From assembly GCA_964016885.1 (NCBI GenBank), contig OZ024745.1, positions 34,596,001-34,660,000 on the forward strand: 64,000 nucleotides of DNA. The letters run 5' to 3'. Origin of the DNA: Eledone cirrhosa (taxonomy: Eukaryota). Positions within the stretch are counted from its first letter, which is position 1, and every line of letters begins with the position of its first letter. This document shows positions 27,902 to 32,079 of this stretch, one piece after another. The notes under the pieces are model-generated. The model was not told where the DNA came from and ran no database searches. It saw nothing but the letters and a program-made list of their open reading frames with translations. The position numbers and the translations under genes were made by a program.

Positions 27902-28110
27902 TTTTATATGGAAAAGACGCTTACAGGGCGAAAAGTATTTCATTCATATGAAATCATCAGGAATGTCCTAGAGCGTCCTGATGATTTCATACGAACGAAA
28001 CAGATTTAGTCCTGTAAAAGTATTTTCTATATAAAATATGCTTTCGTCTCAACTAACGTATTAAGTACATTATATAACTGGTTTCCTTTCGACCCCCTTT
28101 GGTAAACCAT
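27902..28110. mobile_element. Older imperfect twin-hammerhead palindrome (arms 27902-28036) with tail
   Basis: Plus strand CTGATGA-TTTCATACGAAC-GAAA-CAG-ATTTAGTC-CTG-TA (27978-28016), with a mirror core on the minus strand. Homologous to 29213-29344. Stem I is degraded. Confidence 0.8.
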
Positions 28111-28805
28111 CATTAAGTATATATATGTGTGTGTGTGTGTGTGTGTGTGTGTGTGTGTGTGTGTGTGTGTGTGTGTGTGTGTGCATGTGCATATGTTTCT
28201 ATGTGTGTATGTATGTGTGTGAAGAAAAGATTTGAAACTATTAGGGCTTGTAAGAAAGGATTAGTTAAGTAGGGTTTTTAAGTAATCGGCCCACTCAATC
28301 ACTGACAATGTTATTAATACACTTATAAACCTTAAAGATTTGTTGGAATTCGAAGAAATATTTATTGCATAAAAAAATGTTTCTTCAGATTTCAACAAAA
28401 TTTGCCAAGAGTTTCCAAGAACCCTGTTCATATTAAATTACTCCGTAGAATAATACTTGGAACCTATGTACTATACTGGGTTACACATCTCTTTAATTTT
28501 AACACAAAAGAGCTTAAAATAAATAAATATTAAAACCACTTCCGGCCAGCATGGTATAGCAAGCCACATCGGACACTTAAATAGTTCCTTTATTTTCCTT
28601 AGTCGAAGAGATACTAATCTTGAAATATCAGGTCATATGAATAAATTAAGGTGAAAAAGAACAAACCCTACTTTTTGTCCTTTTTGCGTTTGAATTTTTC
28701 TCTGACCAAAACCTGCAGTCGTGGCTTTCCAACTTCGAATTCTCTATATATAATATATATATATATAATATATAAGAACAAAAGATGGTTAAAAGAGTTC
28801 CATGT

Positions 28806-28874
28806 ATTTTATTATGCGCATTTCAAAAACAAATATCATCATGCAATAATATTTGTGTTTTCATCAGATAAAAC
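28806..28874 (-). ncRNA. Type I hammerhead ribozyme (mirror of 28995-29063)
   Basis: Reverse complement of the plus-strand HHR. The single difference lies in the stem II loop region. Confidence 0.82.
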
Positions 28875-28994
28875 AGGAAGACATGATATGAAGGTTAAAA
28901 AACACTTGTGGATAGTTCAGTTTTAAATCAACATATGTTGATTTAAAACTGAACTATCCACAAGTGTTTTTTAACCTTCATATCATGTCTTCCT

Positions 28995-29063
28995 GTTTTA
29001 TCTGATGAAAACACAAATATTATTGCATGATTATATTTGTTTTTGAAATGCGCATAATAAAAT
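28995..29063 (+). ncRNA. Type I hammerhead ribozyme with palindromic stem III
   Basis: Stem I GTTTTAT/ATAAAAT, CTGATGA (29002-29008), stem II AAACACAAATAT/ATATTTGTTTTT (11 of 12 pairs), GAAA (29045-29048), palindromic TGCGCA, predicted cleavage after AUA at 29056. Confidence 0.85.
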
Positions 29064-29225
29064 ACATGGAACTCTTTTAACCATCTTTTGTTCTTATATA
29101 TTATGTATACTCCAGTCCTACAAACTGTAGAGTGCTTCTTATCCGATATCTGCATTGCTTTATTGTACTACAATAAAACTCACCTCCTACATATATATAT
29201 ATATATATATAGTTTTAATATAGAA

Positions 29226-29278
29226 GAGATTCTACAGGACTAGAACTGTTTCATTCATTAGAAATCATCAGGAATCTC
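29226..29278 (-). ncRNA. Type I hammerhead ribozyme (mirror of 29279-29331)
   Basis: Exact reverse complement of the plus-strand HHR. Confidence 0.85.
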
Positions 29279-29331
29279 GAGATTCCTGATGATTTCTAAT
29301 GAATGAAACAGTTCTAGTCCTGTAGAATCTC
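29279..29331 (+). ncRNA. Type I hammerhead ribozyme
   Basis: Stem I GAGATTC/GAATCTC (7 bp), CTGATGA (29286-29292), stem II TTC/GAA with a U-U at the base and TAAT loop, GAAA (29305-29308), stem III CAG/CTG, predicted cleavage after GUA at 29324. Confidence 0.87.
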
Positions 29332-29440
29332 TTCTATATTAAAATTGTTATACTCTGCTATGTATTGAGTACCTTACTTACTGTGGTTACCTCCGATTCA
29401 ACCCGGAATAACGTATATATATATATATATATATATATAT

Positions 29441-29552
29441 ATAACAGATTAAAGTTTAAGCAAAGAAACAGGATCTTCTGAAACTCAGAAGTTTCAGAAG
29501 ATCCTGTTAAGAGTGAAAGCAGCGATTCTTTGCTTAAACTTTAATCTGTTAT
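29441..29552. repeat. Short asymmetric fold-back next to (TA)n
   Basis: Outer arms ATAACAGATTAAAGTTTAAGCAAAGAA/TTCTTTGCTTAAACTTTAATCTGTTAT. Inner hairpin ACAGGATCTTCTGAAACT/AGTTTCAGAAGATCCTGT. About 18 extra nt in the right arm. Confidence 0.88.
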
Positions 29553-30158
29553 TTTCATAAATATTTGCTCTAGGGTTCTTATATATTTGATATATATTTA
29601 TCCTTATCGAGCCCCCTTTGGATTTTTGTTTTCACATTTATTATTATTAATACATATATATATATATATACAGAGAGAGAGAGAGAGAGAGAAAGAGAGA
29701 GAGAGGGAGAGAGAGAGAGAGAGAGAGAGAGAGAGAGAGAGAGAGAGAGAGAGAGAGAGAGAGAGAGAGAGAGTCTTATATACACATCTGTGTGAGTTTG
29801 TGTGTGAATAATACAAAACGCATCAGTGAACTTATACAACATAAATATATTATGAACGAATGAGATAAGATAAACACAAACAAAATGTATGTGTGTGTCT
29901 GTGTGTATGTTTCTGTGTGTGTGTTTCTGTGATAAATAAATGAATTACTGATCTGGTGAACAAATGCAATGCGAACGCCAGGCGGAAAAGAAACACTAAT
30001 TCAAGTAGTGTAAAGTGCTTAGAAACACACACATAAGTATACCTCTGTGTCTGTATATATGTATGTATGTATATATATATATATATATATATATATATAT
30101 ATATATATATATATATATATATATATATATATACATATATATATATATATATATATAT

Positions 30159-30721
30159 ATGGTGGCTGCCAACTCGTTTTCGAGTACGGCCACTACTTTA
30201 TATCCATGTAGGAAAACCCCTACCGATGCGCTGAACGAGTGTGACTTTTTAGTCCAGCCAGCGACTTGAAAACTCTGGTACACACACTACACTTGTGACA
30301 ATTATTGACACATAGAGCTGGGCCCATGGTACCATGTGACGACAAGTGCAGAGAGATCTCCAGATATAAAGCAATGCCTGTGCCGTGAAGATTTTATAGT
30401 GAGCAAAGGCACTGCACAAAGCCAGTCCCACTCTCTTAACCAAGATTATATTTACCAAAAAAAAGAACAAGTCAACATCATTGGATACCAACAGGGTTGC
30501 AGGTGTTATATCAGAGTTTTCCTTGTCCTAGAATTCTGCCTTGACAAAGGCTAAGGGGTCAGCTCTCCCGGTGATTTTGGATGGCCATTGACTCTTAAGA
30601 GCTCCTTTGCCCTTTGATAGGTTTTGTTTTTAGTCCTGCAGGATGTCCAAAGTCACCCTCCTCACCAAGAAACCTTCGTGGCGTTGCCAGTTTAGTCGCC
30701 AACGACCCGACCATGAGACAG
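30159..30721 (-). mobile_element. ~570-bp non-autonomous retroelement, copy 1
   Basis: Highly similar to 41783-42352 and 42385-42994. Shared left end, variable right end. Sits in (TA)n. Confidence 0.88.
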
Positions 30722-30799
30722 ATATATATATACAGACACATGTTTACAGACACACATATGTGTTAATGTATGTGTATAAATATATATATATATATATAT

Positions 30800-30995
30800 A
30801 ACGAAGGAGGTATGGTAAGGAACCAGATGGACCATAACGCACCAGAGTACTCAATACTTAGGGTAGTAGAGTGGGTAATAGGAAATAGTTTAACCCCTAC
30901 GGCAGAGCTCAAGCCGTTTCGACAGCTATTTCTGAATCCAGAAATAGCCGTCGAAACGGCTTGAGCTCTGCCGTCGGGGTTAAACATTTTCCTAT
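30800..30995. mobile_element. Half-hammerhead palindrome folded at stem II (arms ~30878-30995) with tail
   Basis: Central hairpin GAC(A/G)GCTATTTCTG-AATC-CAGAAATAGCCGTC, then GAAA-CGGC-TTGAGCTCT-GCCG-TC-GGGG. No CTGANGA at the expected position. Confidence 0.85.
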
Positions 30996-31011
30996 ATATA
31001 TATATTTATAT

Positions 31012-31201
31012 ATAACGAAGGAAATGTGGTAAAGAACCAAATGGACCATAACGCACCAAAGTACTCAATACTTAGGGTAGTAGAGTGGGTAATAGGAACA
31101 AGTAGGACCCCGACGGCTGAGCTCAAGCCGTTTCGACGGCTATTCAGAATTAGCCGTGGAAACGGCTTGAGCTCAGCCGTCGGGGTCCTACTTGTTCCTA
31201 T
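31012..31201. mobile_element. Second half-hammerhead palindrome folded at stem II (arms 31092-31201) with tail
   Basis: ACGGCTA-TTCAGAAT-TAGCCGT, then GAAA-CGGCT-TGAGCTC-AGCCG-TC-GGGG. Same tail as 30800 but a different loop and flank. Confidence 0.85.
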
Positions 31202-31239
31202 ATATATATATATATATATATATATATATATATAATTAT

Positions 31240-31590
31240 AAGTTTGATGAACAGGCAGACACAATTCATCTAATTTTTCTTCTTAGTCCGGAGAAATTAA
31301 CTAAACAAATAATCAATTAAACGGAGCTAAGTTTAAAATGTAAGTTTGAATAAATAGAGGAATGTTGGTAAATATTGGTAAACATATATCTATTATTTCT
31401 TCAAACTTACATTTTAAACTTAGCTCCGTTTAATTGATTATTTATTTAGTTAATTTCTCCGGCCTAAGAAGAACAATTGGGTAAATTTGATGTGCCTGCT
31501 CTTCAAACATATACTTTTATATTGGTCTGATTAATGATTATTTATTTAATTCATTTATTGAGCCACATCGTTGAAGGTGGGCTACACTCC
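31240..31590. repeat. Imperfect fold-back with ~115-bp arms (31240-31510) between TA tracts
   Basis: CCGGAGAAATTAACTAAA...ACGGAGCTAAGTTTAAAATGTAAGTTTGAA versus TTCAAACTTACATTTTAAACTTAGCTCCGT...TTAATTTCTCCGG. Confidence 0.85.
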
Positions 31591-32079
31591 TATATGTATC
31601 TATGCTTATGTTTAAATATATATATGTTCTTTCTGACTATATATATATATATATAATATACAAATGGAAGTACAGCATATACGAAGCTCGAGCCGCATCT
31701 AAGCCAACGAATGCATTCAGTAGTGCAGCCAAGCACTCGACAAGGTATAAAACCTCAGAGTAATAACATACAGTTTAAAGGGCCTTGCAAATTGAAGATA
31801 GCGACCGGTAATTCAGCCACGGGGTCCGTAGCAACGAAAGAACTGACTCACGAGAAAAAATACATATTTATATATATATATATATATTCATTAAATTTAG
31901 TCTTCAAATTTATTATTATTACTATTATTATTACTATATATATATATATATATGGGATTCATTGGGATTTGTCTAATCGTTTTAACACCAGGAGGGGGGA
32001 CTGGAGAAAAAACTATTTTTCACTTCGTTGTTTTATAATCTAACTATTAACAGAAACTTTAACTGTAGAATTGTATTTG

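Follow-up and report, generated by a model that had tools for sequence, protein, structure and literature searches.

Palindromic insertions in (TA)n tracts of the Eledone cirrhosa genome, probable short products of Penelope-like elements

Penelope-like elements (PLEs) form insertion units recognised by an inverted copy and a tail (PMC8557442, PMC3846280). The purified PLE of Anolis, a predicted dimer, cuts and extends both strands of its target; two internal starts define the tail and ribozyme cleavage is not needed (PMC11167929). The hammerhead ribozymes (HHRs) of PLEs include some with U3-A8 cores and, in Schistosoma, opposite-strand pairs 100-700 bp apart in truncated elements (PMC4209133), and an extra G derived from the mRNA cap is known at insertions made by L1 (PMC11702581). 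For the inverted ends of PLEs the published guess is self-priming. Here we describe a cluster of seven fold-back elements, E1 to E7, in a window of 64,000 nucleotides (positions 34,596,001-34,660,000 of contig OZ024745.1) from the genome of Eledone cirrhosa, which is 3.0 Gb in size and AT- and microsatellite-rich.

The palindromes are best read as the shortest PLE insertions into (TA)n, with arms that are likely two cDNAs of a capped RNA starting inside the terminal repeat (probability roughly 0.68). Each insertion consists of two arms arranged head-to-head, one with a tail and one lacking it, whose 3′ ends are fixed, and longer copies of the same anatomy carry reverse transcriptase (RT) and GIY-YIG frames. 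A preceding sequence-only reading had reported seven separate fold-backs in approximately 4 kb, from at least four unrelated families, none encoding protein and most abutting (TA)n. All seven are present. They represent five families, with E1 related to E3 and E5 to E6; no long open reading frame (ORF) overlaps any of the seven, and (TA)n adjoins six of them, while the tail of E1 ends in a brief run of TA.

Insertion anatomy and parent elements

Every family is dispersed in the genome, the 40 best candidates having been scored in each search. The copies are asymmetric: one arm continues through a tail characteristic of its family to (TA)n, whereas its partner is shorter and has a constant end point. 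The one-sided tail occurs in 15 of 15 E3 loci and the arm ends are sharply fixed in four families (E2, E3, E4 and E5/6). After the tail comes (TA)4, in 42/43 copies of E2, 55/55 of E3, 68/83 of E4 (a count that contains some spurious motif matches), 89/95 of E5/6 and 11/14 of E7. A target-site duplication is unreadable within (TA)n. Since each element has a one-sided tail of approximately 70-110 nt, the true ends lie outside the palindromes.

The longer relatives were compared as individual genome loci, labelled L with a number, and their RT and endonuclease (EN) frames were recognised by motifs and tblastn. L264, of the E4 family, is full-length. It comprises a pseudo-long terminal repeat (pLTR) with tail, an ATG some 45 nt further on, RT with a YRDDG motif, a four-Cys linker, a GIY-YIG-like domain and a tail-less pLTR, with the ORF disrupted by frameshifts. 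In L200 and L264 the sequence runs past the tail into the ORF's beginning and then a second pLTR, an arrangement seen for E4 only. Because L264 continues past the tail to the ATG and ORF, the E4 tail ends at an internal point of the transcript. L093, of the E2 family, is a single two-armed insertion of 3.2 kb with pieces of RT, linker and EN in the tail-less arm, and the E5/6 loci L175 and L176 are likewise two-armed with ORF pieces in that arm.

Judged from their sequence, the elements behave like EN+ PLE insertions of the ordinary kind, and those of E2, E4 and E5/6 belong to them, with RT and GIY-YIG in cis; both the inverted 5′-truncated copy at the 5′ end and the tail on a single arm are found. 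The sequence-only reading had proposed a PLE origin and made it depend on homology to PLE pLTRs, and such homology was found for E2, E4 and E5/E6. The head-to-head duplication of ribozyme region plus tail that it described is also supported, with the tail on one arm. A Naiad origin was considered and rejected in view of the C-terminal EN and the presence of HHRs. Neptune elements have a Cys-rich linker between RT and EN and a bias towards (TA)n, and the four-Cys linker of the autonomous families may be of this type. Its spacing is unlike the CX2-5CxxC wording of PMC8557442.

The parents of the remaining families are different in kind. That of E1/E3 is ORF-less and young, with 98-99% identity in the 40 scored copies, and its unique upstream part, approximately 500 nt long, follows a conserved microsatellite that exceeds 1.5 kb; a 2.6 kb tandem was seen once. 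Upstream of it, in 30 loci and six extended stretches, a search for an ORF returned only microsatellite-rich spacer, and RT/EN matches nearby apparently belong to other insertions. In one such parent, L337:3833-6967 (G000:C1 near 375.206 Mb), a conserved (TA)/(TG) microsatellite longer than 1.5 kb precedes the promoter, hammerhead and tail. This copy has the look of a non-autonomous PLE of young age in which two pLTRs were combined with flanking DNA that had been captured. In the E7 parent the sequence after the tail is that found before the HHR (157 nt, 89%); no intact dimer or tandem array was seen. A non-autonomous class, as first suggested, is represented by these longer ORF-less parents, not by the palindromes as units.

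Formation of the palindromes

Is a palindrome inherited from copy to copy? Searches whose query includes the centre select for repeated simple centres, and do return them in E3 and E4. We therefore rely on a centre-blind sample, obtained with queries lacking the palindrome centre and from random stretches. The 27 compact E5/6 palindromes in it have 26 different centres, the sole repeat lying on two arm haplotypes, and among 29 blind E4 loci no compact copy shares the centre seen in the window. E4 has no lineage variants common to both arms, as opposed to 62 private ones, and the private changes reflect CpG decay with no A>G excess (7/102, 8/107, 2/62 and 5/154), a trace that copying from a long hairpin might be expected to leave. 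Since centres differ from copy to copy, the centre is made at insertion and the palindrome is rebuilt each time. Recurrence of the centres was the check proposed with the sequence-only reading, which had left two options; the propagating unit is not supported by the centres, the E4 variants and the missing A>G excess, and products of one recurrent reverse-transcription route are supported. The short copies, or stumps, do not include the promoter that lies upstream, and most of them were probably dead on arrival.

The proposed route is as follows. The GIY-YIG nuclease would open both strands of (TA)n, and RT would extend both ends from two internal sites whose spacing equals the tail. On transcripts from the pLTR promoter RT would meet the capped 5′ end after 60-260 nt, often adding a C opposite the cap. 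The two cDNA ends would then be joined through microhomology or short templated inserts, which would make the centre new each time, and further insertions would enter the flanking TA tracts to give chains. It had been suggested that transcription from either strand yields the same long hairpin; this holds only for read-through from outside, the proposed template being a single-arm RNA that starts from the centre.

The centres bear on where that RNA begins. In four families many arms begin at one base, and the parents read TC|ATATG, CC|AGATT, TT|AGTTT and TT|AGTCC at this +1 position. The initiator consensus is YYANWYY, which three of the families match in full and E2 at six of seven positions. 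In 10 of 15 parent-type copies of E3 there is a TATA motif at -36 to -23 with CCAAT farther upstream. At -1 the parents have C or T. Of 45 junction arms that are unambiguous and centre-blind, 22 have a G there, compared with 20 of 180 bases at -2 to -5 (Fisher 1e-7), 88 arms that continue into parent sequence and 19 ambiguous arms having been excluded. Such a G is what copying of an mRNA cap would leave, and we infer that transcripts of the pLTR have their capped start at the centre. Genomic micro-palindromes were also tried as the source of the centres; this fits E2 (CATATG) and fails for E3, E4 and E5/6.

Do the two arms derive from one cDNA or from two? Divergence is smaller within insertions than between them in E2 (0.028 vs 0.081), E3 (0.048 vs 0.111) and E5/6 (0.059 vs 0.128). 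The published proposal for rotifer PLEs (PMC3846280) shares the same origin and would form the inverted arm by self-priming, a fold-back of one strand. Copy-specific variants common to both arms and snap-back-like templated inserts at some centres speak for it. The relative lengths of the arms in long insertions do not, as the tail-less arm reaches farther upstream in L093, L175, L176 and L285 and the tail arm does so in L168; two primings are the simpler reading because a fold-back copy cannot hold sequence that its template lacks. A cap-like C on the tail-less arm with no matching C on the tail arm is similarly awkward for self-priming, as is a recurrent T/G difference between arms. At position +100 of E2 the T:G ratio is 23:24 and partner arms differ in 16 of 23 pairs, in both directions, the next site giving 3 of 22, which fits an independent read-out of each arm. 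On balance self-priming appears unlikely. As an observation on the site itself (window position 29032), T and G are near 50:50 in all subfamilies and often unlike between partner arms, and it may be a hot spot of RT misreading or slippage in hammerhead stem II.

In a second rival the palindromes, or a subset, are source elements, a non-autonomous class whose transcripts PLE proteins would copy again. Near-identical full-length E3 palindromes at 40 scored places, the simple centres that recur in E3 and E4 when the query includes the centre, and the existence of ORF-less parent families would all suit it, and if a stump gave a single-arm transcript, a fresh centre would arise from it and the centre test would miss the event. 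Its difficulties are the diversity of blind E5/6 centres, the E4 sample in which the window centre does not recur, the lack of shared E4 arm variants and of an A>G excess, and the fact that stumps do not have the TATA and CCAAT upstream of the parent, while an extra G breaks the initiator. We judge it distinctly unlikely. In a related form, an intact initiator at the centre would fire single arms outward and PLE proteins would double-prime each RNA into a fresh palindrome, giving a self-regenerating class of 130-430 bp with some 10^5 copies in which the centre is never inherited; this too is a doubtful proposition. Could the elements be assembly or library fold-back artefacts? The contigs and reads compared are multi-locus and none of them spans the stretch, but the arms differ by 0-23% in an age-graded manner, ends are family-specific, junctions are copy-specific, and arm sequences with some head-to-head joints occur in the raw reads of a separate study, so that artefact is very improbable. 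Most improbable of all are DNA transposons of the miniature inverted-repeat transposable element (MITE) type, with terminal inverted repeats, a TA target and chance or captured ribozyme motifs. Such elements are short, palindromic, high-copy and TA-flanked, as these are, but asymmetric ends, varying centres, longer relatives with RT and GIY-YIG frames and the lack of a transposase are not what they would give.

Several observations nevertheless weigh against two cDNAs of a capped pLTR transcript. The start site and cap are deduced from DNA alone. No TATA motif was found in the parents of E2 (0/14), E4 (0/22) or E5/6 (0/14). We caution that the arms in the junction-G count are not fully independent, that one parent-like copy is among them, that the E3 query itself held the G and that the exclusions noted above apply. 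In 400 random kb (40 evenly chosen stretches of 10 kb), 12 of 19 arms run into parent sequence and only two of the other seven have the G, one of them ambiguous; the size of the effect is uncertain because of this 2/7. The centre of E7 can be assigned neither to a start site nor to ribozyme cleavage. Divergence within and between E4 insertions is alike (0.034 vs 0.040). The discordance at E2 +100 is inflated by queries that carry it. Searches found no ORF linked to E1/E3 or E7, and Pfam gave no match for five RT or linker pieces, only a neighbouring EN being matched.

Features of the window, ribozymes and scale

The features of the cluster are listed in Table 1.

Table 1. Fold-back elements, insertions and associated features; coordinates are window positions and +1 is the inferred start site
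Feature	Position	Strand	Description
E1 fold-back	27902-28036		77% arm identity
E1 whole insertion	27902..28120	+	Old, E3 family; short arm 27902-27967 (-); long arm and tail 27968 to ~28120; relatives 73-92% identical
E1 degenerate HHR cores	27922-27960; 27978-28016	-; +	
E2 fold-back	28760-29109		99% arm identity
E2 whole insertion	28760..29190	+	Short arm 28760-28934 (-); long arm to 29109; tail 29110-29190; family is a PLE pLTR, the PLE having RT, Cys linker and EN
E2 inferred +1	28933		
E2 complete type I HHR	29002-29056; 28813-28867	+; -	Stem III with palindromic GCGC
E3 fold-back	29213-29344		100% arm identity
E3 whole insertion	29213..29413	+	Short arm 29213-29278 (-); tail 29345-29413
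E3 inferred +1	29280		Both arms with extra G; centre GAATCTC|GAGATTC
E3 complete type I HHR	29286-29324; 29233-29271	+; -	
E4 fold-back	29429-29564		69% arm identity; deletion in one arm
E4 whole insertion	29429..29650	+	Short arm (-) internally deleted; inferred +1 29490; tail to ~29650; same family as pLTR and 5′ untranslated region of a full-length PLE; stops ~45 nt ahead of ATG
E4 degenerate HHR-like core	29495-29528		CAGAAGA
E5 fold-back	30878-30995		92% arm identity
E5 whole insertion	30798..30995	-	Long arm and tail 30930 to 30798 (-); short arm 30943-30995 (+); HHR 3′ halves only
E6 fold-back	31092-31201		95% arm identity
E6 whole insertion	31012..31201	-	Second independent insertion of the E5 family; other centre, other arm haplotype
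E7 fold-back	31228-31522		88% arm identity
E7 whole insertion	31228..31630	+	Short arm 31228-31356 (-); long arm from ~31355; tail 31523 to ~31630; piece of a ~560 nt ORF-less head-to-tail unit; HHR (U3:A8 core) ends just upstream of centre and is excluded from E7
(TA)n tracts, inferred target sites	28745..31660		Between and around insertions, e.g. 29191-29210, 29414-29443, 30780-30799, 30996-31013, 31199-31234
Isolated E4-family tail-end fragment	31896..31923	+	Between TA runs

HHR cores on both arms of three elements and 3′ halves on both arms of two others had been noted earlier; these are E1, E2 and E3, and E5 and E6, respectively. The degenerate core of E4 had not been counted. A type I motif search of the cluster, with 100 shuffles as background, gives four complete folds on both arms of E2 and E3 (shuffle mean 0.01, maximum 1). 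In E1 both cores are present, but stem I has decayed and does not pass. No complete type I HHR (CUGANGA, GAAA, UH, stems I-III) is seen in the copies of E1, E4, E5, E6 and E7 in the window. Rfam searches of 16 kb and of single arms returned no hammerhead family; matches to miRNA families on the cluster were below cut-off and reflect the perfect hairpins. Among 24 chosen copies of E1/E3 the catalytic core does not vary, and stem I shows a swap from A-U to C-G. Pairing of the E1/E3 hammerhead is 81%, compared with 34-45% when slid, and covariation is weak, being equalled in 19 of 500 shuffles. The minimum-energy structure of E2 is not the HHR fold. The E2 and E3 HHRs are complete type I motifs with putative cleavage.

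The parents explain the half ribozymes. In those of E5/6 the hammerhead is entire and its core is U3:A8 or C3/A8; that of E7 has a U3:A8 core. E5 and E6 carry 3′ halves only because the +1 of the family sits inside stem II of the parent HHR, and a start there would leave the whole ribozyme only in read-through RNA. In the E5/6 parents L065, L076, L079, L235 and L237 the cores are UUGAUAA, UUGAGAA, UUGACAA and CUGAGAA, the 3:8 pair being broken in the last. Elsewhere in the window, type I motif matches lie at 18713 (-), 20027 (-), 568 (+) and 58373 (-); the match at 18713 resembles E2 and has a palindromic TATA stem III. At 28335-28395 a small imperfect hairpin has a minus-strand CTGAAGA and no complete hammerhead. 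The 400 random kb hold 45 hammerhead motifs, compared with one in shuffles.

How exceptional is the cluster? The random set contains 35 compact palindromes, not all of them PLE-derived, and 44 insertions of the five families, approximately 3.3 x 10^5 genome-wide if scaled. Seven elements in about 4 kb compare with 0.35 expected, some 20 times the average (Poisson 9e-8, post hoc). Strong general clustering was considered and rejected, since two or more families occur in 88 of 229 short loci as against approximately 29% expected from random density, only modestly above chance. In the cluster, insertions into TA tracts form a local chain, which is a dense spot of a class found genome-wide.

Other repeats were noted in the window. 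A repeat of approximately 560-600 bp flanked by (TA)n has three copies (30161-30721, 41775-42383 and 42350-42947), two of them in tandem and 95-97% identical. It is also nested in L337, shows no hammerhead motif by scan and is possibly another non-autonomous PLE-type unit. Pieces of E5/6-family tail lie at 18031-18251, as a tail-to-tail inverted pair in (TA)n, and at 464-523. A single-armed dispersed repeat lies at 31650-31857; of five other loci inspected, four have (TA)n next to its left end. A further family, with abundant copies of about 190 bp that are often in inverted pairs and have no relation to E1 to E7, occurs at 52434-52857, 54209-55486, 23250-23436 and 9996-10520, and an 18-bp minisatellite of 75 copies with 92% matches occupies 23548-24901.

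Implications and comparison with known systems

The genome of E. cirrhosa offers a very large natural sample of PLE junctions and very many hammerhead motifs. If the cap signature and the unequal arms hold, PLE start sites could be mapped from DNA alone, and double priming would be supported and testable in an existing in vitro system. The route proposed would also explain why short solo pLTRs are common. We note that such stumps could be misfiled as MITEs. In the literature searched, from which subscription journals were mostly absent and where a report may be in print, we found no cap-derived G, start-site signature, double priming or unequal arms described at PLE inverted junctions. This suggests that the signature of start site and cap, and the argument from unequal arms, go beyond the papers found; the insertion architecture itself is already known.

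That architecture is shared with EN+ PLE insertion units (PMC8557442, PMC3846280): head-to-head inverted pLTRs, a tail on one arm, microsatellite targets, an HHR in the pLTR and partial tandems at full length. Most copies here, in contrast, consist only of two pieces of pLTR (130-430 bp), the tails described above compare with 30-40 nt there, the centre lies at the inferred capped start, and two cDNAs are favoured over self-priming. Poseidon PAc of Anolis studied in vitro (PMC11167929) likewise has two internal RT starts that set the tail, AT-rich targets and an HHR in the pLTR, features read from DNA in the present case. The start sites of E4 lie before the ATG whereas those of PAc are inside the ORF, the linker here looks more like that of Neptune, and the accessible parts of that text mention neither inverted junctions nor cap copying.

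The hammerheads resemble those described in PLEs (PMC4209133): the folds are of type I, stem III is palindromic in E2, the cores of E7 and of some E5/6 parents are U3-A8, and there are opposite-strand pairs tied to truncated elements. They differ in the full stem III of E3 and E5/6, in the inferred E5/6 start site that would split the ribozyme and in E4, where position 4 is an A and stem I is displaced. The parent of E7 resembles metazoan non-LTR retrozymes (PMC7229834; bioRxiv 10.64898/2026.07.22.740005) as an ORF-less, apparently head-to-tail unit with a type I HHR, and it has PLE anatomy, but its unit of approximately 560 nt is known from DNA only, and the palindromes are not tandem monomers. 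Finally, L1 twin priming (PMC11702581) is comparable to the route proposed here in that both target ends are primed, inverted pieces are joined by microhomology and an extra G derives from the cap. L1, however, copies different parts of one RNA, whereas here both arms would cover the same stretch from two nearby internal starts.

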